Below are positions 38,611 through 51,271 of a DNA stretch of 64,000 bases, piece by piece. Source of the DNA: Candidatus Latescibacterota bacterium (GTDB lineage Bacteria > Latescibacterota > UBA2968 > UBA8231). How positions within the stretch are numbered: position 1 is the first letter of the stretch; every line of letters begins with the position of its first letter. The stretch covers positions 864,001 to 928,000 of the forward strand of contig CBDCSU010000006.1 of the NCBI GenBank assembly GCA_965221775.1. Reading direction: 5' to 3'. A program made the position numbers and the translations under genes. The notes beneath the pieces were generated by a model. It was not told where the DNA came from. It made no database searches and saw only the letters and a program-made list of their open reading frames with translations.

Positions 38611-39534
38611 GTGCGGAGTCTGCTCGCGGCGCCCACGGCCCTGGAGGCGGTGCGGCGGTTCCGCCTGAGGGCGGTGGTCGCCGTCGTCTCGGTAGCCACC
38701 GGCGTCGCCGCCATGGTGGCGATCCAGTCCGTCGGCGCCGCGGTGCAGCGGCTGGTCATGGGCGAGCTCGGCCGGCTCGGGCTCCAGAGGCTGGTCCTGG
38801 TGCACCCCCGGCCGGCGCCGCCACGGCAAGGACCTGCGCCGTTGCTGACCCTGCAGCAAGTGGTGGAGCTCGAGCGCACCGTGCCCGGTCTCGACCACGT
38901 GGTGCCCATGTCGCGGATGGATCTCCGGATCCAGTCCGGGGGCCGCGGGGCGTACGCCCGGGCCACGGGGACGGTGCCCGACTACCGGCGGCTCCTGGGA
39001 GACACGATGGCCTGGGGCCGGTTTCTCGACGCGACCGATGGCCTGACCCGCCGCAGGGTCTGCGTCCTGGGCGCCGATCTCGCCGAGCGGCTGCTGCGAG
39101 GCGGCCCATCCACGGGCCGGAGGGTCCGCCTCGACGGCGTCACCTACACGGTCGTGGGCGTGCTCGAGAGAAGACGGTTGATGGAGGCTGCCCGGGGCGA
39201 CGAGCGGCTCATCCTCCCGGTCCGCACGCTGGAGAGCTTCCACGGCGGGCCCCCCGGGGTCCACCGCATCCACGCATCCCTGGCGGCCGGTGCCGACCCT
39301 GCCGGAGCCGTGGCCGCCGTTCGCCGCGTCCTCGCCCGCGGCGGGCAGGACCTGGAGCGCTACGAGGTCCTGAGCGGCCGGGAGTTCCTCGAGGACATCA
39401 ACCAGGCCCTGATCGCGGCGCGCCTGGTGACGACGGCCATCGCCGGCATGGCCCTGGTCGTCGGAGCCGTGGGAGTCCTCAACACGATGCTCATCTCGGT
39501 GAGGCAGCGGATCTGGGAGATCGGCCTTCGCAAG
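38611..39534 (+). pseudogene. MacB-like ABC permease, 5' part (interrupted by IS1595 element)
   Basis: Ends at ...QRIWEIGLRK at the insertion site. Confidence 0.85.
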
Positions 39535-39547
39535 GGGGATTACATAC

Positions 39548-39576
39548 TTGACTGCGCAAGACCCGTTTCGTATCTT
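39548..39576 (+). promoter_or_regulatory. Sigma70-type promoter in IS left end
   Basis: TTGACT-N17-TATCTT pointing inward. Confidence 0.6.
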
Positions 39577-39582
39577 GGAGGT

Positions 39583-39895
39583 TGACGGGCGGCTCCTGGC
39601 GGGACCCGGAGCCTCCGTAAGTATACGGGAAATCAACGAGTTATCCAACTCGGAGCAGGTAGGGATCAGATGGGCACTACTGGCCGCAACCGAGAGGCGT
39701 TGACAGGGTTCGGGCGGGTTCGATCTTCGAGGAAGGGCGGGCAGCTACGGCAGGTCCTTCTATCTAACGGAGGCAATCCTTCGCCTGGCCTTACGGGGAG
39801 TCCATACGGCAAGAAGCCAGCGCCGGGGAAGTAAGAGTAAGACCGACGCTATGGACAAACCCGCTGCCCGCCCTCACTCCTACTTAACCCGATAG
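39583..39895 (+). ncRNA. Candidate structured RNA or long 5' leader upstream of the transposase
   Basis: No convincing ORF. Perfect 12-bp long-range pairing AGGGCGGGCAGC (39734) with GCTGCCCGCCCT (39863), plus local hairpins near 39586-39618 and 39637-39652. Confidence 0.4.
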
Positions 39896-39905
39896 AGGAT
39901 TGGAA

Positions 39906-40913
39906 ATGGCCGTCAAAGAGGAATCCAAGGTCAAGGCCGTCAAGGGCCGGACCCGAGAAGAGAAGCCGACCAAGAAGAAGCAGAAGGCTCCTGGTCGCCA
40001 CTATCGAGCTGGGATCACGATGGTGGAGTTGTTCAGGATGTTCCCGGACGATGCCGCTGCGGAAAAGTGGTTTGAGCGTCAGCGGTGGGAACAGACCGGC
40101 CTCTACTGTCCTTTGTGCGGCTCCTGCGACAAGGTGAAGGAAGCTCCCAAGCGCAAGCCGATGCCGTACTGGTGCGGAGACTGCCGGAAACGATTCTCCG
40201 TCCGTACCGGGACGCTGATGGCCCGGTCCCATATCTCGTTGCAGAAATGGGCCATCGGGATCTTCCTGCACCTGACCAGCCTGAAAGGCGTCTCTTCGAT
40301 GAAGCTGCATCGGGACCTGGGGATCACTCAGAAGTCCGCATGGTTCATGCTGCATCGGATCAGAGACGCTTACGGGTGCGAGCCGTGCATGATGGAGGGT
40401 CCGGTCGAGGCGGACGAGACTTTCATCGGCGGGCTCGAAAAGAACAAGCACTCACACAAGAAGTTGCGGGCCGGTCGGGGGACCGTAGGCAAGGCCGTGG
40501 TCGTCGGCGTCAAGGACCGTGAGACAAAGCAGGTTCGCGCCTCGGTCGTGCCGGACACGTCTCGCAAGACGCTGCACGGCTTCCTTCGCAAGCATATCAA
40601 AGCCGATGCCAAGACGTACACGGACGAGAATGTGAGCTACAAGGGCCTGCTGAACCACGAGGCGGTCCAGCACTCCATCGGCAAGTGGGTGGAGGGAGAA
40701 GCGCACACCAACGGCATGGAGTCGTTTTGGGCCACGCTAAAACGTGGATACCATGGGGTTTACCACCGTATGAGCGTGCAGCACCTTCACCGCTACATCC
40801 AGGAGTATGCCGGCAAGCACAACATCCGGGACAAAGACACGCTCGATCAGATGCGGGATGTTGTGGCCGGGATGATCGGCAAGCGCCTGATGTACAAGGA
40901 CCTGACTAAGTAG
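39906..40913 (+). CDS. IS1595-family DDE transposase
   Basis: Zn ribbon CPLC...CGDC, then VEADETFIGG, YTDE, HTNGMESFWATLKRG. Confidence 0.95.
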   Translation: MAVKEESKVKAVKGRTREEKPTKKKQKAPGRHYRAGITMVELFRMFPDDAAAEKWFERQRWEQTGLYCPLCGSCDKVKEAPKRKPMPYWCGDCRKRFSVRTGTLMARSHISLQKWAIGIFLHLTSLKGVSSMKLHRDLGITQKSAWFMLHRIRDAYGCEPCMMEGPVEADETFIGGLEKNKHSHKKLRAGRGTVGKAVVVGVKDRETKQVRASVVPDTSRKTLHGFLRKHIKADAKTYTDENVSYKGLLNHEAVQHSIGKWVEGEAHTNGMESFWATLKRGYHGVYHRMSVQHLHRYIQEYAGKHNIRDKDTLDQMRDVVAGMIGKRLMYKDLTK

Positions 40914-41229
40914 GAGGCTCAGATGATTTCAACTCTGTCTCAATCCGTTCGAGGGCCGATAGGATCTGCTGCTCTGTGGTTGGCTCAAAGGTGCGGAGTA
41001 TATCCCGAGCCATTTGAACCAGTACAGAACGCTCGATCAGAAAGGTCTTGGCTTCCGGCTTGTATGCCGGAATGGTCTGACCCTTACTTGTATCCTCCTG
41101 AAACGTCCAAAGGACAAAAACCACGTCCTTGGGGTCGGGTGTTTCTTTCGATAACTGCTCCGCCAGCTCTGCCTTTGACACCCGAAGAAAGGGGTAGGGT
41201 AGAGCAGGCCGTTGCTCGGATTGTGGCAA
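40906..41229 (-). CDS. Hypothetical passenger protein
   Basis: AGGAGG RBS 5 nt before a TTG start. Converges on the transposase. Confidence 0.5.
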   Translation of the reverse strand: MPQSEQRPALPYPFLRVSKAELAEQLSKETPDPKDVVFVLWTFQEDTSKGQTIPAYKPEAKTFLIERSVLVQMARDILRTFEPTTEQQILSALERIETELKSSEPPT

Positions 41230-41467
41230 AAGGTCCTCCTAACCATGAGGCTAAAAGATGAACAGCAAACCGAAACGCCAGCCGAAGCGCCGTACGTCTC
41301 GCAAGTCAAGCTCGCGTAGGTCTTCCTCTGACACTCGTCAAGCTATGCGATCCGCTCGTGATAGGGACCCTGGCAAGCAGGCCGATGCCCGCCGTATTGT
41401 CCATACCCTGTTGCATGGACGCGGCAGCGGCGAGGGAACGGAGCCTAAGAAGAACGAAGACAGCAAG

Positions 41468-41980
41468 TCAATCGTCCTTGGGCTTGTCGCCGACGCGGAA
41501 AGCGAAGAATCCTAACGCGGGGACGTGCTCCAAAGATAGCCACGCATCCCGATCCCCGAGTTTCCTCTTAACCTGCTGCAAATCCCCTGTCTTCTGAATC
41601 TCCAATACAGCTTCTTTGAACCAGTCGTTCCTTCCTTCCCACTTCGGCCACAGAAGATTCAGCAGGCCGAAGCCGTGCATTACGTTAAGCGTGACTACCT
41701 GCTCGTTGTCGTTGGGTAGCCACAAGAGTAGTAGGATATTACTCAGATCGTCCGCCGGGCCGATCAACTCAACACTCGTAATGCCCACCGTACTGCTTCC
41801 CAAGACCCGAGGCGTACCGTCTTCCAGGGGAGCAATCTTGAACTCGAATTTCATATCCTCGTACTTGGCTTGCAGGTAATCCCTTGAGATCCCAAGTCCC
41901 TTAGTCTTCGGATCTTCGGCCAGTAGGAACGAAGGCAAGGCCAGCATTACGAGAATAAGCCAGTAGAATCTGATCTGCAT
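41468..41980 (-). CDS. Secreted hypothetical passenger protein
   Basis: Signal peptide MQIRFYWLILVMLALPSFLLA. Confidence 0.6.
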   Translation of the reverse strand: MQIRFYWLILVMLALPSFLLAEDPKTKGLGISRDYLQAKYEDMKFEFKIAPLEDGTPRVLGSSTVGITSVELIGPADDLSNILLLLWLPNDNEQVVTLNVMHGFGLLNLLWPKWEGRNDWFKEAVLEIQKTGDLQQVKRKLGDRDAWLSLEHVPALGFFAFRVGDKPKDD

Positions 41981-42275
41981 TTCCCGCCCCTTTGCAGAAG
42001 GTTGAAGGGAACGGCCCGGCGTCCCGAATGGACACCGGGCCGTTGCAAAGCAGATCTCTGAGCGAGAAATGTCCCCGCCTATTCACCATCTTCCTCCAAG
42101 GAGCGACCTCGAAGGATACTGCACCGGCTCTTGTATTCAGCAGGCGACCCGGCACAGAAGGCCGGAAAGCTCGGCTGAGACCTGCTTTGCACGCTCGCAG
42201 AATAGATAGATTCTGAGGGAAAGTCAAGAAGAACAACGACTTGTGCGGAGGGTACTTGTTCGTAGATTCAAGGGT

Positions 42276-42884
42276 ATGGACCTAAGAGAACTGATCGAGG
42301 ATCGCCGGGCCGCCCTCGGCATCCGGCGCGGGGAGCTGGCCCGGAGGATGGGCTACCGGGACCCTTCCCGTGGCTGCCGGCGAATTGACAGGCTGCTGGA
42401 CGGCGACGTGGAGCTTGCGGAGGCGCTACGGGCGCGGCTGGCGGCCGGCCTGTCCGTGGAGCCGGGGAAGGTGGATGAGGCGATCCGGGGCGAGCTGGCG
42501 GCTCAGGAAGCCGCGTACCGGGCTGCGTTCAAACCGCACGCGATCGCCCGCACGCGGCGCGAGCGTCCGGAGCCGGTGTTCATTTACGCGATGTGCGGCG
42601 GCCCGGAGACTCAAGTGATCGGCTTGGAGGAAGAGCTGGGGGCGGGAACCTTCGCCCGGCAGGCTCTTCTCAAGCTCCCTGATGCGGTCCCCGGACTCGG
42701 GGCCGTCACCAGCTACGTGGTCAACTACTCGCCGGACCGGGCGGTTGAGTATGACCTGGCCGGCGATCCCGTCCGGGAGTTTGATCGAGCCATCCCGATG
42801 CCGTGGGCCGGCATGGTCGTTGGCGGGAAGCGGATCGGTAGCAAGACGTGGTCAAGGCTGATGAAGATGGAGAAGACTCACTGA
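42276..42884 (+). CDS. XRE-like HTH domain protein
   Basis: LIEDRRAALGIRRGELARRMGY HTH pattern. Confidence 0.65.
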   Translation: MDLRELIEDRRAALGIRRGELARRMGYRDPSRGCRRIDRLLDGDVELAEALRARLAAGLSVEPGKVDEAIRGELAAQEAAYRAAFKPHAIARTRRERPEPVFIYAMCGGPETQVIGLEEELGAGTFARQALLKLPDAVPGLGAVTSYVVNYSPDRAVEYDLAGDPVREFDRAIPMPWAGMVVGGKRIGSKTWSRLMKMEKTH

Positions 42885-42885
42885 C

Positions 42886-42988
42886 AGGGATACTTACAGG
42901 TGCTGGATTGCGAGGGATACTTACAGGTGCTGGATTGCGAGGGATACTTACAGGTGCTGGATTGCGAGGGATACTTACAGGTGCTGGA
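42886..42988. repeat. 27-bp tandem repeat, about 3.8 copies
   Basis: AGGGATACTTACAGGTGCTGGATTGCG x3 plus a 22-nt partial copy. Confidence 0.95.
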
Positions 42989-43116
42989 GGACCCAACACA
43001 GACGCGGGCTTTCGTAACTTACGAATAGCCAACTTACCCATGTCCCATACGAAATTGAGAATAAGGGACACGATCAATTCCACGCCCATGGTTTTACTGC
43101 TCCGTGAGAATTTCTA

Positions 43117-43608
43117 TCACTGAGGGAAGAAAGATCGTGTTTGGGAATGTCCCTTAACTCGATCTTCGATAATCTGTTTGAAGCGTAATTCCAACGTTCC
43201 TTTAGAGGAACACAGGGCATACCCGCTATTCTCTCCGAGACTGCGGTACTCTCGAAAATTCATGTTGACAGTAAGTCTGCTAGATATCTCGCTATCTTCC
43301 CGCAAAACCATGTTGAAACGGAGATAGCGGTGTTGAGGGACTGCTATACCTGGAGTACCGCAGTCAATAAACTCTCCCATCCAGGGCGCGGGCCGTCCCA
43401 TTCCAGTCCATTCTGTAACTATCAGACCGGAATCCTTCTCGATAGTGCTGATTGGAAAATCATGTTCTGCCAAGAAGTCTACAATGGCGGCCCATACCTT
43501 GTCGTACTGTCCCATAGGCCAACTCTTGTCGAAGGTATATTGTTGAGGGGCAACAGCACAAGACGTTAGGCTTATAGCGGCAAGTAATGTAACGAGCGGT
43601 TGGTTCAT
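43117..43608 (-). CDS. Lipoprotein (BamC-like fold candidate)
   Basis: Lipobox LTSC and YDKVWAAIVDFL...STIEKDSGLIVTEW. Confidence 0.65.
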   Translation of the reverse strand: MNQPLVTLLAAISLTSCAVAPQQYTFDKSWPMGQYDKVWAAIVDFLAEHDFPISTIEKDSGLIVTEWTGMGRPAPWMGEFIDCGTPGIAVPQHRYLRFNMVLREDSEISSRLTVNMNFREYRSLGENSGYALCSSKGTLELRFKQIIEDRVKGHSQTRSFFPQ

Positions 43609-43835
43609 CTGTCCTTGCCCTCGTAGCTCTCGTTCCTCCGTCGTTCTGAATCCTGCTGGATGTCCGTCACAGCGTTGTAAATGAAGAATAGCCCAAAGGT
43701 CACGACTATCTGATACGGTGTGAATTCCCAATACAAGACCAGCACAAGCAGAATGAGCCCTCCGATCAAAGCCTTGATCCCTCGGATAGGGCTTGACTCA
43801 GGAATCTTCATGCCGTCCTTCCTTTTGTAGGGCAT
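43605..43835 (-). CDS. Small 2-TM membrane protein
   Basis: Two hydrophobic segments. Stop overlaps the lipoprotein start. Confidence 0.5.
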   Translation of the reverse strand: MPYKRKDGMKIPESSPIRGIKALIGGLILLVLVLYWEFTPYQIVVTFGLFFIYNAVTDIQQDSERRRNESYEGKDR

Positions 43836-43850
43836 CTTGAAGCGGTATCA

Positions 43851-43935
43851 GAGAGGCTAGAGAATCGGCGATCTCAACCGACTTACAATCGGCTGCCTGT
43901 GACAGGGCTTGCGGGTTCGAATCCCGTCGCTGCCG
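43851..43935 (+). pseudogene. Degenerate tRNA-like copy (anticodon UAC, broken acceptor stem)
   Basis: 41-nt core identical to the 44603 copy. Intact T arm GCGGG-TTCGAAT-CCCGT, unpaired acceptor stem, no CCA. Confidence 0.65.
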
Positions 43936-44038
43936 ATTGCATCCACTTGCACAAGAGTTGGTAGTTATCGATGTGATCCGGCCCGCCTTTTGATCGGGGG
44001 ACTTTATGGTAGGAGCAGGCGGCCTGACGGAGGGAGGG

Positions 44039-44239
44039 TCAGGCTTCCTCCCTGTATTCCCAGATCGTGCCATCGGGCTTCTCTGCCACCACTCGACCCG
44101 TTCCGTAGTTCAGTAGCTTTCTGGCCAAATGCAGGGCGTGGGCCTCCCAGTCGTCGTCGCCATCCATCACAACGGTGATGTGGATATCCTCCGGCTCCTT
44201 GGTGTTCTCGTAGGCGCGGAAGATGTAGTTACCTTTCAT
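44039..44239 (-). CDS. Small hypothetical passenger protein
   Basis: 66 aa, GGAGG RBS upstream. Confidence 0.45.
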   Translation of the reverse strand: MKGNYIFRAYENTKEPEDIHITVVMDGDDDWEAHALHLARKLLNYGTGRVVAEKPDGTIWEYREEA

Positions 44240-44365
44240 CACCGCTGATCCCCCTCCAAGAGTGAAGAAGTATTCCCCGCAGGTGGCCCGACACGCGAGC
44301 CCCCTGGGAAGTAGGCAGGGTGGAATATAAGAGCCGCAAGACGCCGGCCCAAGCACAATTTCCGG

Positions 44366-44539
44366 TTAGGGAGGATTCTCGGCGGCGTACTTCTCGCGCC
44401 GCTCCCGAACCATCTCCTTGTGCGTCTGCGGAGGCGTGTTGAGTAGATTTCGAGCGATCCGTTCCGCTTCCTGATGGATCTCTTCCGGGATCTTCCCTTC
44501 CGGGTCGATCTCGCGAGTACTTGACTGTTCTTCGTGCAT
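44366..44539 (-). CDS. Small passenger protein
   Basis: 57 aa containing IARNLLNTPPQTH, AAGGA upstream. Confidence 0.45.
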   Translation of the reverse strand: MHEEQSSTREIDPEGKIPEEIHQEAERIARNLLNTPPQTHKEMVRERREKYAAENPP

Positions 44540-44562
44540 GGCGTTCTTCCTTTCGATAGAGC

Positions 44563-44596
44563 GATGCCCTCCGACCTGGCAGGGTCGGAGGGCATC
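44563..44596. other. Strong hairpin immediately upstream of the tRNA-like gene
   Basis: GATGCCCTCCGACC / GGTCGGAGGGCATC, a perfect 14-bp inverted repeat. Confidence 0.75.
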
Positions 44597-44602
44597 TGTC
44601 AC

Positions 44603-44689
44603 GGCGGGGCTGAGAATCGGCGATCTCAACCGACTTACAATCGGCTGCCTGTAGCGGGCTTACGGGTTCGAATCCCGTCCCCGCCGCCA
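44603..44689 (+). tRNA. Non-canonical tRNA: anticodon UAC (Val) with long variable arm, G73 and encoded CCA
   Basis: Acceptor GGCGGGG/CCCCGCC, D stem GAGA/TCTC, anticodon arm CCGA-CTTACAA-TCGG, variable stem GCCTG/CGGGC, T arm ACGGG-TTCGAAT-CCCGT, 3' end G-CCA. Confidence 0.75.
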
Positions 44690-44825
44690 CCCAACTATGC
44701 GTTACGCCTACATGCGATACGAATGTTACGATACAAAGGTTCTTCGTCAATAGGTGAACATCAAAGCACTATTCGGACTCCAACGCCGGGGTCTGCGAAG
44801 TCAACGGTATAATTCCCTTCGCAAG

Positions 44826-45119
44826 GCCCTCGGCGCCCGGCCGATGGCCATCGTGGGTCAGTTCCTCACCGAGGCGGTGGTCCTGAGCTGCTGCGGCGGC
44901 GGCCTCGGCCTGGCCCTGGGATGGGGACTCGCCCGGGGCGGCGAGGCGATGCTCTCCGGATGGCTCGGAACCTCCATGGCCGGCTCCACCGACTGGGGGT
45001 CCGCGGGGCTCGCCCTGGCCGTCTCCCTCTGCGTGGGCATCGGCTCCGGCGTCGTGCCCGCGGTGCAGGCCGCCGAACTCCCTCCCGCGGAGGCCATGAG
45101 GCATGCTGGTCGAGCTTGA
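44826..45119 (+). pseudogene. MacB-like ABC permease, 3' part
   Basis: ALGARPMAIVGQFLTEAVVLS...PAVQAAELPPAEAMR continues the 38611 gene. Confidence 0.85.
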
Positions 45120-45816
45120 GTCCGCCTGCAAGACCTACAGGAGGGGGACGCAGGAGGTGCGCGCCCTCCGGGAAGTGGACGCCGCCTTCGGCGAGGGCGA
45201 GTTCGTCGCCCTCATGGGTCCCTCCGGCTCCGGGAAGACGACGCTGCTCAACATCATCGGCTGTCTCGACAACCTGACGGCGGGCCGGTACCTCCTGCAG
45301 GGCGAGGATGTGACCGGCCTGAACCCCATCCGCCTCGCCGAGGTCCGAAGCCGCAGGATCGGCTTCGTCTTCCAGAGCTTCCACCTGCTGCCGAGGGCGA
45401 CGGCGGCGGAGAACGTCGAGCTGCCCCGGATCTACGCGGGAGCGAACCGCCGCCAGCGGCGGGAGTGCGCCCGCGCGGCCCTCGATCGGGTCGGGCTGGC
45501 CGACCGCCGCGACTTCCGGCCGGAGGAGCTGTCCGGCGGCCAGCGGCAGCGCGTGGCCATCGCCCGGGCCCTGGTCAACGAGCCCTCGCTGATCCTGGCG
45601 GATGAGCCCACCGGCAGCCTGGACCCGCAGGCCGCGGGAGAGGTCATGGAGCTGTTCGCGAGACTGAACGACGAGGGCATCGCCATCGTCCTGGTAACGC
45701 ACCAGGAGGAGGTGGCGCGGCACGCGAGGCGGAAGATCCGCCTGGCCAATGGCCGCGTGCTCCCCACACCCGCGGGACCGGAGTCTCCCGCACAGACCCA
45801 AGGGACCCGCCCATGA
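45103..45816 (+). CDS. ABC ATP-binding protein (MacB/LolD-type)
   Basis: [33 protein letters not shown]. Confidence 0.93.
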
Positions 45817-46567: not shown

Positions 46568-46990
46568 ATGCCAGAATCGAAGTCGCCAGCCCTGCGGCTC
46601 ACAGCCGACGTTGTGGGTACCGTCGGTTCGTCGCTGTGTGCCTTGCACTGTGCCATCCTGCCACTGAGCCTCATCCTGGGCACCACGCTGCCTCTCACGC
46701 TGATGGGAGAAGAGATCTTCCACCTCGGCCTGCTGGGCCTGGTTCTCCCGGCCGGGGTCGTGGCCTTCGGCCTCGGTTGTCGTGAGCACCGGGACGCCTG
46801 GGTGCTGGCTCTCGGTGTCATGGGCATGCTCGGGATCCTGCTGGCCGCCACGGTGCTGCATGATGTCGTTGGCGAGTCCGGTGAGCGCGCAGCGACGCTC
46901 GTCGCGGCCGTCGTCCTGATCTCCGCTCACATCCGCAACTTCCGCCTGTGCCGCGCGAGCCGATGCGACTGCGGCCCTCCCGAAGGATGA
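46568..46990 (+). CDS. MerC-domain membrane protein
   Basis: [23 protein letters not shown]. Confidence 0.85.
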
Positions 46991-47634
46991 GCCGTATGGG
47001 TCGTAGACCGCTGTCGATCGTTGCCTCTCTGTGGGTGCTGACCTGTGCGGCGGCAGCCCAGCAGTCGGCGCACGTGCACGGGACCGCAGCCATCAATCTG
47101 GCCATCGAAGGCGAGGAGCTGGAGATCGAGTTCGTGTCACCGGCCGGCAATATCGTCGGCTTTGAACACGAGGCGGTCACACCCGGCGAGCGTCAGGCGA
47201 TCCGGGATGCGATCGAGCAACTCAAGGAGGGCCACGCGCTGTTCGATCTTCCGCACGCGGCCAGCTGCAGCCTGCATGTCGCCGATGTGAAGCACGGGCA
47301 CCAGGAAGAAGAGGACCCCACGGACGGTCATGGGCACGGTGCCGAGGGCGATGACCACGACGAGCACGAGCACGCCGAAGCCGAGCGCGAAGATGGCCAC
47401 GACGAGCACGGCCACGACGAGCACGGACACACGGAAGAGAAGGCGGACAGCACGCACTCCGAGTTCCATGCACACTATCACTACGAGTGCGATGGATCGC
47501 CCATCACGGAGATCGGGGTCCGTCTCTTCGAGCACTGGCCACGCATCGAGGAGATTCGCGTCCAGGCCCTGACCCCGACCGGCCAGTTCGGGGCCGTTAC
47601 CAAGGCGAAGGACCCGGTGATCAGGTTGAAGTAG
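46987..47634 (+). CDS. zrgA: ZrgA/DUF2796 zinc-uptake periplasmic protein
   Basis: AHVHG, SPAGNIVGFEH, a His-rich loop, HSEFHAHYHYEC. Confidence 0.85.
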   Translation: MSRMGRRPLSIVASLWVLTCAAAAQQSAHVHGTAAINLAIEGEELEIEFVSPAGNIVGFEHEAVTPGERQAIRDAIEQLKEGHALFDLPHAASCSLHVADVKHGHQEEEDPTDGHGHGAEGDDHDEHEHAEAEREDGHDEHGHDEHGHTEEKADSTHSEFHAHYHYECDGSPITEIGVRLFEHWPRIEEIRVQALTPTGQFGAVTKAKDPVIRLK

Positions 47635-47655
47635 CCACGGGAGCCGACGCCCGGC

Positions 47656-48357
47656 ATGAACGAAGACCTCATCGAAATCGAGGACCTGGGCTTTGGGTGG
47701 CCCGGCGCACCGCCTCTGCTCCGTTGCGACCGGTTCCTCCTGCGACGCGGCGAACACCTTTTCATCCGCGGCCCCTCGGGCAGCGGCAAGTCGACGCTGC
47801 TGAACCTTCTGGCCGGAGTACTGACGCCGGACTCGGGGCGCCTGTCGCTGATGGGGCAGGATACGGGCTCCCTGGCCGCGGCCTCTCGCGACCGACTTCG
47901 CGCCGACCACATCGGGTTCATCTTTCAGCAGTTCAACCTGGTGCCCTACCTCGACCTGGCCGAGAACGTCGTCCTGCCCTGCCACTTCTCCCGCCGCCGG
48001 TCCGCGCGGGCGGCGGAGACGCACGGCGGCGTGACCGCGGCCGCACGGTCCCTGCTGCAACGCCTGTTCGTCGAGGAGGAACTGGACCCGACGGCACCGG
48101 TATCCAGGCTCTCCGTCGGTCAGCAGCAGCGCGTGGCCGTGGCGCGGGCCCTGATGGGCGATCCCGAAATCGTGATCGCCGACGAACCGACCTCGGCCCT
48201 CGACTTCGAAGCGCGAACACGCTTCATCGAGTTGCTCTTCGAACGGGCCCAGGCGTCGCGGGCGACCCTGGTCTTCGTCAGTCACGATCCGACGCTCGCC
48301 GGCGGCTTCGACCGCACGGCCCACATCGATGACTTCCGGGCGGAGCCTCACTCGTGA
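47656..48357 (+). CDS. ABC ATP-binding protein (ZrgB-like)
   Basis: GPSGSGKST and LSVGQQQRVA. Confidence 0.9.
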   Translation: MNEDLIEIEDLGFGWPGAPPLLRCDRFLLRRGEHLFIRGPSGSGKSTLLNLLAGVLTPDSGRLSLMGQDTGSLAAASRDRLRADHIGFIFQQFNLVPYLDLAENVVLPCHFSRRRSARAAETHGGVTAAARSLLQRLFVEEELDPTAPVSRLSVGQQQRVAVARALMGDPEIVIADEPTSALDFEARTRFIELLFERAQASRATLVFVSHDPTLAGGFDRTAHIDDFRAEPHS

Positions 48358-49595
48358 AGGTGCTGCACCTGGCCTGGAAGAGTCTGCGCAACCGAAGCGG
48401 CACCGCGTCGCTGACCGTCCTGACGATCGCGGTCAGTGTGGCGCTCCTCCTCGGCGTCGAGAAGGTCCGGTCGCACGCGCGCGAGAGCTTCGCCAACACC
48501 GTCTCCGGAACCGACCTGATCGTCGGCGCGCGCAGCGGTTCGGTGCAGCTGCTGCTGTATTCGGTCTTTCGCATCGGCAACGCCACGAGCAATATTGCCT
48601 GGTCCAGCTATTCGGACATCTCGACATGGTCGGGCGTCCGCTGGGCCATCCCGATCTCCCTGGGCGACTCGCACCGCGGTTACCGCGTCATGGGCACGTC
48701 GGCCGACTACTTCGAGCACTTCCGCTACGCCGACAAGCGTCATCTCCGCTTTGCGCAGGGCCGGCCTTTCGCCGAGACCCTCGACGCCGTCCTCGGCGCC
48801 GAAGTGGCGCGCAAGCTGGGATACCGGATGGGTGATGCGCTGGTCGTTACCCACGGCCTCGGAACGGATGGCTTCGGCGACCACGACAACCACCCCTTCA
48901 AGGTCACCGGCATCCTGGCGCAGACCGGCACGCCCGTCGATCGCACCGTTCACGTCAGCCTCGCGGGGATCGAGGCGATGCACATCAACTGGAACCGTGT
49001 CGAGACCGATCTCCGGCGCGCCCGGGGCCAGGACCTGACCCCGCGCCAGATCACCGCCTTCCTCCTCGGCCTCGACAACCGACTCGCCGCCTTCAGGCTG
49101 CAGCGCGACATCAATCAGTATGGCGCCGAACCGTTGCTCGCCATCTTTCCGGGCGTGGCGCTGCAGGAGCTGTGGGACTTGATGCGCGTTGGCGAACAGG
49201 CCCTGCGGGTTGTCTCGATCCTCGTGGCAGCCGCGGCGCTGGCGGGTCTGCTGTCGGTCTCCCTGGCGGGGCTCAACGAACGCCGGCGTGAAATGGCCGT
49301 GCTGCGCTCGGTCGGTGCCGGCTGTCGCCACGTCGTGGGATTGCTGATCGCGGAGTCAGCGCTGTTGACGCTGCTCGGTATCGCCATGGGAGTGACGATG
49401 CAGGGCATGACGCTGGGGGCCCTGCAGCCCTGGATCGTCGAGCGCTTCGGCCTGTTCCTGCCCATCGGCCTGCCAGGCGCCGGGGAGTGGCGCCTGCTCG
49501 GTGGCCTGATGGCGGCGGGCCTGCTCGTTGGCCTGGTGCCGGCCTGGCGGTGCTACCGCAACTCGCTTGCCGACGGCCTGGCGACTCGTCTGTGA
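48354..49595 (+). CDS. ABC permease (ZrgC-like, MacB/FtsX family)
   Basis: DLIVGARSGSVQLLLYSVF and PISLGDSH. Confidence 0.88.
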   Translation: MKVLHLAWKSLRNRSGTASLTVLTIAVSVALLLGVEKVRSHARESFANTVSGTDLIVGARSGSVQLLLYSVFRIGNATSNIAWSSYSDISTWSGVRWAIPISLGDSHRGYRVMGTSADYFEHFRYADKRHLRFAQGRPFAETLDAVLGAEVARKLGYRMGDALVVTHGLGTDGFGDHDNHPFKVTGILAQTGTPVDRTVHVSLAGIEAMHINWNRVETDLRRARGQDLTPRQITAFLLGLDNRLAAFRLQRDINQYGAEPLLAIFPGVALQELWDLMRVGEQALRVVSILVAAAALAGLLSVSLAGLNERRREMAVLRSVGAGCRHVVGLLIAESALLTLLGIAMGVTMQGMTLGALQPWIVERFGLFLPIGLPGAGEWRLLGGLMAAGLLVGLVPAWRCYRNSLADGLATRL

Positions 49596-49638
49596 GCGCA
49601 TCTTGAGAGACTCTCGTCCGTCGCCGATCCGGGGAGCC

Positions 49639-50202
49639 ATGTCCATGTTTCGCCAACCCTTGCTCATTCTGCTGCTCGTCACCAGCGCCGCCGCCTCGGA
49701 CTCACCGCGCGAGATCCTGTGGGACCAGCTCGTTCCCGAAGGCTGGAATCCCTACGCCCTGTTCGACGAACTCAGCGTTGAGGAGATCGACGCCCTCAGC
49801 GACGAGGAGTATTTCGCGTTGCAGGAGAAGGCCCAGGAGATGCTCGACAAAGCGCCGCTGGTGGAGGAGCTCGATGGCGAAACGGTGAAGATCCCGGGCT
49901 TCGTGCTGCCGCTGGAGTACGACGGCACCCGGATCCGCGAATTCCTGCTGATGCCCTATCTCGGCGCCTGTCTCCACACCCCGCCGCCGCCGGCCAACCA
50001 GGTCATCCGCGGCAGCCTCGCGCAACCCCATGACCTGCAGGAGATGTGGCACCCGGTCTGGATCCTCGGCCGCCTGAAGACCGGCCACGCCACGAACAAG
50101 CTCGACGAGGAGGGTTATGACTCCCTCTCCAACGTGAGTTCGGGCTACTCCATGGACGTCGAGTCGATCGAGCCCTATACCCAGAGAGACCCGAATGGCT
50201 GA
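49639..50202 (+). CDS. DUF3299 protein (ZrgD-like)
   Basis: EFLLMPYLGACLHTPPPPANQ. Confidence 0.88.
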   Translation: MSMFRQPLLILLLVTSAAASDSPREILWDQLVPEGWNPYALFDELSVEEIDALSDEEYFALQEKAQEMLDKAPLVEELDGETVKIPGFVLPLEYDGTRIREFLLMPYLGACLHTPPPPANQVIRGSLAQPHDLQEMWHPVWILGRLKTGHATNKLDEEGYDSLSNVSSGYSMDVESIEPYTQRDPNG

Positions 50203-51271
50203 ACTCCAGGACGGGAAGGAACCGATTCCAGTGACGATTGTCAGCGGCTTCCTGGGCGCCGGCAAGACCTCTCTGCTCAACTACATTCTCAGCGCCAACC
50301 ACGGACTGCGCGTGGCGGTGTTGGTCAACGACTTTGGAGAGATCAACATCGACGCCGAGTTGGTATCCGGGGTCTCCGGGGAGTCCACCGTCAACCTCTC
50401 CAACGGGTGTATCTGCTGCTCGATTCGCAGTGACCTGCTTGAAGCAACGGTTCAACTGGTACAAGGCCCGAACCCGCCGGAGTATATCGTCGTTGAAACG
50501 AGCGGCGTATCCGACCCCGTGGCGGTCTCATTGACCTTCATGGCCGCCGAGTTGCGGTGGCGGACACGGGTGGACAGTATCCTCACCGTGGTTGATGCGG
50601 AGCAGATCGATCAGGTGGACGGAAAGAACCGCGAGCTCGCGTTGGACCAGATCGCCATGGCAGACATGGTGGTGCTGAACAAGGTTGACCTGGTCAATGA
50701 CGAGAGACGGGAGGAACTGGCAGGCTTTGTGAGAGACCTCGTTCCGAGGGCGCGTATTCTCGAAACCACATTCGGGAAGGTTCCCCCCGATCTGGTGTGC
50801 GGTGTCGGGACCTACGACCTCCAACGCTTTGCGGGGAAGACGGGTCTGGATGTTCACATCCATGCCCACGGAGAGGCGCCGCATGAACACGAACACCACA
50901 CCGACCATACGCTTGTCTTCAACACGTGGTGTTATGCGACTGACCAGGCGCTGTCACGTCGGGCCGTGCTTGATGCGATGAAGACCCTGCCTGCGACCAT
51001 CTACCGCGCCAAGGGGTTTCTCTACCTCCACGATGCTCCCGGTCGAAAGGGAATCGTGCACGTTGTCGGCAAACGCGCGCGTCTGATCACGGGTGAGCCG
51101 TGGGGCGGCGAGAAACCGGGGACCCAACTGGTCTTCATCGGTGAGGAAGGTGGGATCGACGAAGGCGAACTGCAGTCGCGCCTTGATGCGTGCCAGACGC
51201 AAGAGGATGCTCACGAGGATACCACTCTTGATGCCACTATTGACCTGCTTCGGCAGCTTGCAGTGAAGTAG
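50195..51271 (+). CDS. CobW/COG0523 metallochaperone GTPase
   Basis: GFLGAGKT, NGCICC, ETSG, NKVD and a His-rich linker. Confidence 0.93.
   Translation: MAELQDGKEPIPVTIVSGFLGAGKTSLLNYILSANHGLRVAVLVNDFGEINIDAELVSGVSGESTVNLSNGCICCSIRSDLLEATVQLVQGPNPPEYIVVETSGVSDPVAVSLTFMAAELRWRTRVDSILTVVDAEQIDQVDGKNRELALDQIAMADMVVLNKVDLVNDERREELAGFVRDLVPRARILETTFGKVPPDLVCGVGTYDLQRFAGKTGLDVHIHAHGEAPHEHEHHTDHTLVFNTWCYATDQALSRRAVLDAMKTLPATIYRAKGFLYLHDAPGRKGIVHVVGKRARLITGEPWGGEKPGTQLVFIGEEGGIDEGELQSRLDACQTQEDAHEDTTLDATIDLLRQLAVK

Follow-up and report, generated by a model that had tools for sequence, protein, structure and literature searches.

Siguier, Gagnevin & Chandler reportedly described, in 2009, "transporter IS" of the IS1595 family that carry passenger genes. 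The element examined here, located in a 64,000-nucleotide stretch of a Candidatus Latescibacterota genome (contig CBDCSU010000006.1, positions 864,001 to 928,000; hereafter the window), resembles them in having a DDE_Tnp_IS1595 transposase, inverted repeats, an 8-bp target duplication, and passengers lying between the transposase and one end. One of these passengers, at window positions 44603-44689 (+ strand), is a tRNA gene with the valine anticodon UAC on a long-armed body that carries the published serine identity elements. An initial annotation of the window, made from the sequence, had called it a transposon-borne tRNA with a valine anticodon and a serine-like body.

The other described systems closest to it are tRNAs. 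As presented in the available text of Mukai et al. (2017, PMC5389517), the serine-type allo-tRNAs share with the window tRNA a long variable arm, G73, non-serine anticodons, and a link to transposons; many of these tRNAs with odd anticodons lie near toxin-antitoxin genes, and one pseudogene overlaps a transposon-related open reading frame (ORF). The same text reports that some allo-tRNAs are translationally active and others are not, its authors suggesting that most allo-tRNA-UAU species may not serve translation. Their acceptor and T stems are split 8/4 or 9/3, whereas the split is 7/5 in the window tRNA; UAC does not appear in the main text on allo-tRNAs, and the supplements of that article might list similar 7/5 tRNAs. 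An allo-like 8/4 tRNA does occur in one related IS1595 element (L093). In the tRNAProX of Streptomycetaceae, likewise natural tRNAs of bacteria, the anticodon does not agree with the charging identity, and the available portions of Schuntermann et al. (2023, PMC10404621) report that they mistranslate and are toxic in Escherichia coli under constitutive expression. These tRNAs have a proline identity and a dedicated ProRSx gene alongside, and transposons go unmentioned in those portions, whereas the window tRNA has a serine-type set of identity elements, no dedicated synthetase, and a transposon as carrier. Finally, anticodon variants of yeast and human tRNA-Ser mistranslate (cited in Giege & Eriani 2023, PMC9976931) on the principle that would apply here, namely that seryl-tRNA synthetase (SerRS) ignores the anticodon and serine is misincorporated, but they are engineered or sporadic eukaryotic variants and not passengers of a bacterial mobile element. 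Natural tRNAs with mismatched identity and anticodon are already known; full-text literature searches returned no description of tRNA passengers in the IS1595 family, the string "transpos" does not occur in the text of a 2024 review of tRNAs in mistranslation, and a transposon-borne class appears, from these searches, to be absent from print.

The tRNA gene and its identity elements

The gene is the sole tRNA called by ARAGORN in the window, as an 87-nt tRNA-Val(tac), and the Rfam tRNA model RF00005 covers 44603-44686 over its full model length with 41.9 bits (gathering score 29, E 1.7e-05 for the window). At minimum free energy (MFE), it folds into a cloverleaf: the acceptor stem has 7 bp and the T stem 5 bp, a D stem of 4-5 bp closes the D loop AUCGGCGA, the anticodon stem has four pairs and an A27/C43 mismatch, the loop CUUACAA contains the anticodon UAC, and a 5-bp stem and a 3-nt loop make up the 16-nt variable arm. 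The T loop is UUCGAAU, U33 and G18G19 are present, and G73 and the encoded CCA, which like C8 are read straight from the sequence, are unpaired in this fold. The marks of a canonical tRNA (the RF00005 score, the 7-bp acceptor and 5-bp T stems, and the conserved loop positions) are all found, and every structural trait listed in the initial annotation, i.e., a complete 87-nt cloverleaf, CCA, UAC, a long paired variable arm, G73, C8, and an A-C mismatch, was recovered from the sequence, ARAGORN, Rfam, and the fold. C8 and A27/C43 had been flagged there as odd; both are present, yet both are found in other, apparently normal tRNAs, and nothing marks them as special. Indeed, C8 with an identical D loop occurs in a tRNA-Ser(GGA) of a metagenomic contig (L098) and in viral tRNA-Tyr genes, and ordinary metagenomic tRNAs for Met, Lys, and Leu have the A27/C43 anticodon stem, so that we regard them as lineage traits and not as damage. 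A coding region mimicking a tRNA was rejected, the overlapping ORFs having no matches and the tRNA score being high. That a real tRNA gene lies on the transposon is, in our view, close to certain.

A perfect hairpin precedes the gene (Table 1), and this arrangement is also seen in two related elements, L026 and L032. The folding z-score is -1.85 for the tRNA by itself and -4.57 for the tRNA together with the upstream hairpin. In the precursor fold, C-1 (window position 44602) is able to pair with G73 (44686) and to give an 8-bp acceptor helix, which might move the RNase P cut.

The isotype of the body was assessed with profiles built from 203 non-redundant ARAGORN tRNAs of the host genome and of all fetched loci, transposon-borne tRNAs being left out, with anticodons masked and one profile hidden Markov model per isotype; the training sets are small. 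In a leave-one-out control, the assignments were correct for Ser (22/22), Leu (25/27), Ala (13/14), Val (7/8), and Tyr (2/4), and for 144 of 194 tRNAs overall. The window tRNA scores 29.8 bits as Ser, 26.1 as Leu (26.6 when only type II Leu is considered), 20.6 as Tyr, and 0.9 as Val. A score as an ordinary tRNA-Val, which the initial annotation had named as the result that would speak against its proposal, was not obtained. ARAGORN, which it had expected to reveal a discrepancy, calls the gene tRNA-Val(tac), and the mismatch with the body is seen from the masked profiles. The body is clearly not Val-like and clearly belongs to the long-arm class, yet it is an atypical member of that class.

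Published identity rules allow this assignment to be refined. For serine, identity depends chiefly on the variable arm and not on the anticodon, with contributions of G73, G1-C72, G2-C71, and G30-C40 (Giege & Eriani 2023, PMC9976931). As stated in the available text of the same article, Leu and Tyr identities require A73, together with A15-U48 in the case of Leu and with U35 in that of Tyr, a change of A73 to G73 converts Leu identity to Ser, and Val identity rests on A35 and A73, the latter being called a universal Val determinant, with minor roles for C36, G20, G45, and G3-C70/U4-A69. From sequence and fold, the serine set (long paired variable arm, G73, G1-C72, G2-C71, and G30-C40) is complete in the window tRNA, which holds for none of the other published sets compared; a serine anticodon (NGA or GCU) is absent. 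From the valine set, A35, C36, and G45 are present, G73 stands in place of A73, and C3-G70/G4-C69 in place of G3-C70/U4-A69; the short type I variable loop and Val-like body of a tRNA-Val are lacking. We consider it very probable that the body is not of the valine type. Several other assignments were discarded: tRNA-Leu and tRNA-Tyr, since the molecule has G73, U15, and A35 where A73 and either A15-U48 or U35 are required; tRNA-Sec, which needs an 8/5 split, a 6-bp D stem, and UCA and not a 7/5 split, a 4-bp D stem, and UAC; and the 8/4 or 9/3 allo-tRNA fold, C8 being unable to pair with the base after the T stem. The description of a valine anticodon on a serine-like body therefore stands as far as a non-Val, long-armed body with G73 and a best score as Ser is concerned, but it is less firm in its choice of serine: because the margin over Leu is about 3 bits, the label "Ser-like" rests mainly on G73 and on the published identity rules.

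The host genome (5.36 Mb, 6 contigs, about 70% G+C) also encodes a canonical 77-nt tRNA-Val(UAC), a tRNA-Val(CAC), and a tRNA-Val(GAC), as well as four normal tRNA-Ser, whose acceptor stems are of the GGAGAG type, and, outside the window, a tRNA-Sec. Since the host already encodes these, the window tRNA is an extra gene. A single SerRS, with an N-terminal arm domain, is found in the host.

The carrier transposon and its cargo

The element, which is single-copy in the host genome, stands out by a G+C content of 0.5-0.6 between about 39,600 and 44,750, down from about 0.75. Only two inverted-repeat motifs of the family type occur in the window, at the ends of the element; at their starts (GGGGATTA... 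and GGGAATTATACCGTTGAC...), they agree with the ends of related elements delineated from multi-copy insertions in other genomes. The terminal repeats are imperfect, 22 of 31 positions of the left end being the reverse complement of the right end when counted by hand. The insertion splits a gene for a MacB-type permease, and the FtsX motif EIGLRKALGA is restored when the flanks are joined; an ABC ATPase (45103-45816) follows the 3' part. The transposase is the sole one detected by Pfam in the element, and the 3' end of the tRNA lies 128 nt inside the right end. The hallmarks of an IS1595 passenger transposon, i.e., transposase, inverted repeats, 8-bp duplication, and extra genes, are all present, and the transposon-borne nature of the tRNA, as initially proposed, was borne out by the transposase, the repeats, the exact 8-bp duplication, and the split MacB/FtsX gene. 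The element looks young and intact, with an exact target duplication, a full-length transposase, and cargo ORFs that have homologues. A look-up of data sets that contain this stretch listed no RNA set and a single study, probably the source sample and thus not an independent support, whose contigs bridge both junctions and show no joint of an empty site.

Table 1. Features of the IS1595-family element and of the interrupted gene, in window coordinates
Feature	Position	Strand	Basis
Interrupted MacB-type permease gene, 5' part	38611-39585	+	Pfam MacB_PCD and FtsX profile positions 2-34
Left target-site duplication copy, TTCGCAAG, 8 bp	39527-39534		Identical to 44818-44825
IS1595-family cargo transposon, 5,283 bp, 50-60% G+C	39535-44817	+	Composition drop, inverted repeats, split gene
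Left terminal inverted repeat, starts GGGGATTACAT	39535-39565	+	Matches ends of related IS elements
IS1595/ISXO2-type DDE transposase, 337 aa	39900-40913	+	PF12762, E 3e-35, profile positions 2-149 of 153
Two overlapping cargo ORFs, 76-aa membrane-like and 163-aa lipoprotein-like	43117-43835	-	ORF list; weak NlpB/DapX match below cut-off
Degraded tRNA paralogue, acceptor stem broken, without CCA	43855-43935	+	Repeat search, Rfam 27.2 bits, flank alignment
Small cargo ORF, 66 aa	44039-44239	-	One homologue elsewhere, 85% identical
Small cargo ORF, 57 aa, divergent from tRNA	44366-44539	-	One homologue elsewhere, 71% identical
Perfect 15-bp hairpin, ends 6 nt 5' of tRNA, U-run on neither strand	44563-44596	+	Fold
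tRNA, type II, anticodon UAC, G73, CCA encoded	44603-44689	+	ARAGORN, Rfam, MFE fold, isotype profiles
Interrupted permease gene, 3' part	44754-45119	+	Pfam FtsX profile positions 27-120
Right terminal inverted repeat, starts GGGAATTATACCGTTGAC on the - strand	44787-44817	-	Nearly identical to right end of L033 element
Right target-site duplication copy, TTCGCAAG	44818-44825		Identical to 39527-39534

About 750 bp upstream of the intact tRNA lies a degraded paralogue whose score is below the Rfam gathering score. Positions 43860-43900 are 100% identical to 44612-44652 (41/41 nt), a stretch that runs from the D arm into the beginning of the variable arm and contains UAC. In the T arm, a single change keeps the pairing (A-U to G-U), and the variable arm is different but still pairs; the acceptor strands have diverged and are unpaired, and a cloverleaf fold was not obtained. 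The likeness of the two copies extends some 20 nt into both flanks, at a much lower level. As judged from the alignment, the 41-nt identity would need either gene conversion or selection. A duplication of attachment sites by an integrase was rejected, given that no integrase is found among the two family-less ORFs between the copies, that the partial copy lies upstream, and that the similarity spans the whole tRNA and both flanks.

Both copies lie just upstream of, and antisense to, the starts of minus-strand cargo ORFs, the overlapping ORF pair starting just downstream (- strand) of the degraded copy. The only promoter-like site of the region (44750-44723, - strand) would read through the tRNA. 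The two small ORFs adjoining the tRNA are probably real genes, because each has one homologue (Table 1). The cargo ORFs reach no family cut-off, with two weak sub-cut-off matches in Pfam, E values of at least 0.04 in NCBIfam and PHROGs, and nothing in PADLOC. Their homologues were found neither in the cargo of 56 related elements nor in the fetched loci, and the 64-aa homologue of the 57-aa ORF, used as query, found no counterpart in 167 other genomes of the phylum.

Two further parts of the cargo deserve mention. Five tandem 27-bp units, three of them identical, are located at 42859-43015 and encode PAPVSIPRN repeats in a minus-strand ORF without family match. A strong GC-rich hairpin is found at 42008-42082 (- strand), and the stretch around it (42027-42166) is the only part of the cargo with nucleotide similarity (73-85% over 40-140 nt) to related IS1595 elements, namely L050, L016, L069, and L066, where the similar stretches lie about 1.1-1.4 kb downstream of the transposases; the region 42008-42166 may be a conserved IS-internal RNA or terminator. 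Outside the element, downstream, 46568-51271 holds a metal-related cluster that encodes a MerC-like protein, a ZrgA-family zinc uptake protein, a second ABC ATPase with a MacB-type permease, a DUF3299 protein, and a CobW-family GTPase; the G+C content of this cluster is lower (about 0.60) at 50,000-51,200.

tRNA cargo in related elements and relatives of the tRNA

Relatives of the transposase are encoded in 349 of 384 pattern-matched stretches, the 80 kept of these being 53-64% identical, and come from genomes of many phyla, several of which are named as sponge symbionts. The same inverted-repeat motif together with an exact 8-bp duplication was found in 29 of 79 related loci, for elements of 1.35-7.4 kb. 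These 29 elements and 12 others with approximate ends, several of the 41 being copies of one IS, were scanned with ARAGORN, and tRNA-like genes were found in four distinct elements. A T-loop motif revealed one more tRNA-like gene in L052, where it belongs to a second IS that has inverted repeats of its own. This brings to five the related IS1595 elements, all from other phyla, in which tRNA-like genes were found.

The masked-anticodon profiles (scores in bits) classify these cargo tRNAs as follows. In the second element of L032, one gene has an Ala-like body (39.1 versus 26.2, with G3/U70, A73, and CCA) and the anticodon GAA, and the other has a Leu body (40.1 versus 10.8) and the anticodon GCG; the gene of L052 has a Ser body (29.1 versus 17.3) and the anticodon UAG. 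These three clear mismatches all involve bodies that belong to synthetase systems not reading the anticodon. The gene of L093, with the 8/4 structure mentioned above, has a weak anticodon stem and the anticodon GAU. L026 carries an Arg-like gene with the anticodon ACC (39.1, with Met at 37.5 and Lys at 37.3 close) and a Val-like gene with the anticodon UAC (27.7, Lys being 0.2 bits behind), and the gene in the multi-copy IS of L032, with the anticodon CGG, belongs to no clear class. The background loci available for comparison were gathered via tRNA similarity and contain other odd tRNAs; hence, no enrichment statistic is given. The second element of L032 (L032:1775-5841, 4.07 kb) has the same family-type inverted repeats and adjoins the multi-copy IS, and its two mismatched tRNAs lie near its ends.

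The closest relative of the window tRNA found is the tRNA-Ser(GGA) at L098:5609-5694 (- strand), with 68 identical positions, which lies outside the profile training set. Both carry C8-U9, G73, and CCA, and in both the D stem has 4 bp, the 8-nt D loop is identical, and the variable arm, 15-16 nt long, terminates with UU, whereas the L098 gene differs by its serine anticodon and by its location in a tRNA array and not in an IS element. The D arm is also found in tRNA-Tyr genes of large viral contigs and is therefore not Ser-specific, and Leu(UAA) tRNAs share the anticodon stem and the 3' half. In plasmid and phage collections, all matches were partial and fell on ordinary tRNAs (Leu, Ser, and others), and two viral pattern scans returned only tRNA-Tyr genes that share this D arm and tRNAs of the Met type that are unrelated; pattern scans of collections demand an exact match at the specified bases, so that diverged relatives can be missed.

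Several other loci with unusual tRNAs were encountered. On the 101.8-kb metagenomic contig L098, of which 10.1 kb were examined, 22 ARAGORN-called tRNAs and an uncalled tRNA-Tyr lie within 10 kb, and several of them have unusual T loops (GGUGCGA); this contig probably represents a large phage or some other mobile element. In L002 (G042:C1:7130798-7133822), from the same class as the host, irregular tRNAs are densely arrayed within about 1.7 kb and include an 87-nt long-arm tRNA with the Thr anticodon UGU and U73. Long-arm tRNAs with G73 and non-serine anticodons were also found in metagenomes at L107:248-336 (-), L114:319-410 (-), L118:2274-2363 (-), and L110:13376-13467, their anticodons being UAU, GUA twice, and CCA; the UAU tRNA of L107 has a typical Ser acceptor and adjoins a Cas6 gene, and the GUA tRNA of L114 adjoins a Gp49/HigB-like and HTH pair. 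L107, L114, and L118 share the anticodon stem of the window tRNA only because the search pattern fixed that stem. Finally, a family of viral contigs of about 47 kb (L213-L225) carries one tRNA each, with a nearly constant Met-type body. In most of them, the anticodon is CAU; one has UAU, and two have AAU.

Charging, decoding, and competing explanations

The initial annotation had suggested serine insertion at valine codons, a decoy for tRNA-targeting toxins, or an RNA processing signal as possible roles, all three of which are hypothetical. We tentatively propose, at somewhat less than an even chance, that the window tRNA is of hybrid identity, probably serylated, and misreads GUA and GUG in the cell. 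The gene would be transcribed and its product processed, the CCA being encoded, and the ordinary SerRS of the host would serylate it, perhaps in competition with valyl-tRNA synthetase (ValRS), which sees A35 and C36. Once serylated, the UAC tRNA would read GUA and, by wobble, GUG, thereby inserting some serine at valine codons. That the molecule could be serylated if expressed is, taken separately, rather likely.

Several observations weigh against this proposal. The lead of Ser over Leu amounts to just 3.2-3.7 bits with small training sets, the median margin of genuine tRNA-Ser being 26.2 bits, and ValRS recognition depends strongly on A35 and C36, so that plain charging with valine may be what happens. 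GUA is the rarest Val codon of the host (1.4 per 1000 codons, or 1.8% of its valine codons, as counted over 1,876 long ORFs), and its use is five times higher in the eight ORFs of the element (9 of 1,189 codons, i.e., 7.6 per 1000 and 12% of Val codons), which serine insertion would hurt. Furthermore, the single GUA codon of the transposase aligns with Val in 76 of 86 homologue alignments; because it sits at a conserved Val, the genes of the element would themselves expect Val at GUA, and a private reassignment of this codon within the element was rejected on the same grounds. As for GUG, which amounts to 35 per 1000 host codons, a wobble contact should be costly to the host. No sigma-70-like promoter for the tRNA was found on the + strand. 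The searches for relatives were also unfavorable: the exact IUPAC pattern of the D and anticodon arms had 0 matches in representative genomes, the 24 matches of the anticodon-arm and T-loop pattern in metagenomes all proved to be other tRNAs, BLAST against 168 genomes of the phylum recovered nothing beyond T-arm matches, and the five genomes with the closest transposases held nothing like the window tRNA. Evidence from conservation or covariation would consequently be limited to one degraded paralogue, these searches having yielded no orthologue.

An alternative that we hold to be unlikely is that of a spare tRNA, odd in shape but Val-accepting, which ValRS would charge via A35 and C36 and which would boost the decoding of GUA, as phage codon-compensating tRNAs do. 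It would fit the frequency of GUA, rare in the host and commoner in the low-GC element, the presence of A35, C36, and G45 from the valine set, and the conserved Val encoded by the GUA of the transposase; the UAC tRNA-like gene of the L026 element, whose body scores best as Val with Lys close behind, points the same way. However, the host already has a canonical tRNA-Val(UAC), the universal determinant A73 is replaced by G73, G3-C70/U4-A69 are absent, and the Val profile of the body hardly scores; moreover, we know of no natural Val tRNA with a long variable arm. Not quite as improbable, yet still doubtful, is an inert hitch-hiker: a captured Ser- or Leu-type gene whose anticodon mutated and which, unselected and unused, is decaying like the neighboring copy. 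Its singleton status in the searches, the paralogue 750 bp away that has lost acceptor pairing and CCA, and the lack of a + strand promoter agree with this view, and the Leu(UAA) tRNAs with the same anticodon stem and 3' half offer a source, a single change of A36 to C turning the Leu UAA loop into that of the window tRNA. Against decay speak the intactness of all stems and universally conserved loop positions in a young element, the 41 core positions kept in the degraded copy despite diverged flanks and acceptor, and the recurrence in related elements of intact mismatched tRNAs with bodies of the anticodon-blind class, which random decay does not predict.

A role outside translation seems to us quite improbable: a tRNA-shaped RNA acting as a decoy for an anticodon-loop enzyme or toxin, as a processing or insulating signal, or in sense/antisense control of the cargo operon. 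The position of both copies, antisense and immediately upstream of minus-strand cargo starts, and the promoter-like site reading through the tRNA would suit such a role, as would the degraded copy, which retains the D, anticodon, and variable-arm core and not the acceptor, and the hairpin-then-tRNA layout of L026 and L032. On the other hand, toxin, defense, and nuclease families were not found in the cargo with Pfam, NCBIfam, PHROGs, and PADLOC, gene conversion can explain the 41-nt identity, and the intact acceptor stem, G73, and CCA suit aminoacylation and are not needed by a decoy or antisense RNA. In a broader and more speculative scheme, which we consider possible but doubtful, IS1595 cargo transposons would move code-tampering tRNAs, with foreign anticodons on bodies that the anticodon-blind synthetases for Ser, Leu, and Ala could charge, between distant phyla; the window tRNA would be a working member that inserts Ser at GUA and GUG, and its degraded twin would be part of a control circuit for the tRNA or the cargo.

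Natural tRNAs in which charging identity and anticodon disagree are rare, and the descriptions of the known allo-tRNAs and tRNAProX do not present them as passengers of a defined, mobile transposon. If silent or valylated, the window tRNA would be a mere curiosity of tRNA gene capture. If tRNAs of this kind are expressed and charged, a common transposon family would spread deliberate or tolerated mistranslation horizontally. This would bear on the origin of changes in the genetic code, on what mistranslation costs and brings, and on the advantage that passengers confer on transposons, and such tRNAs would provide a ready-made natural chassis for code engineering.

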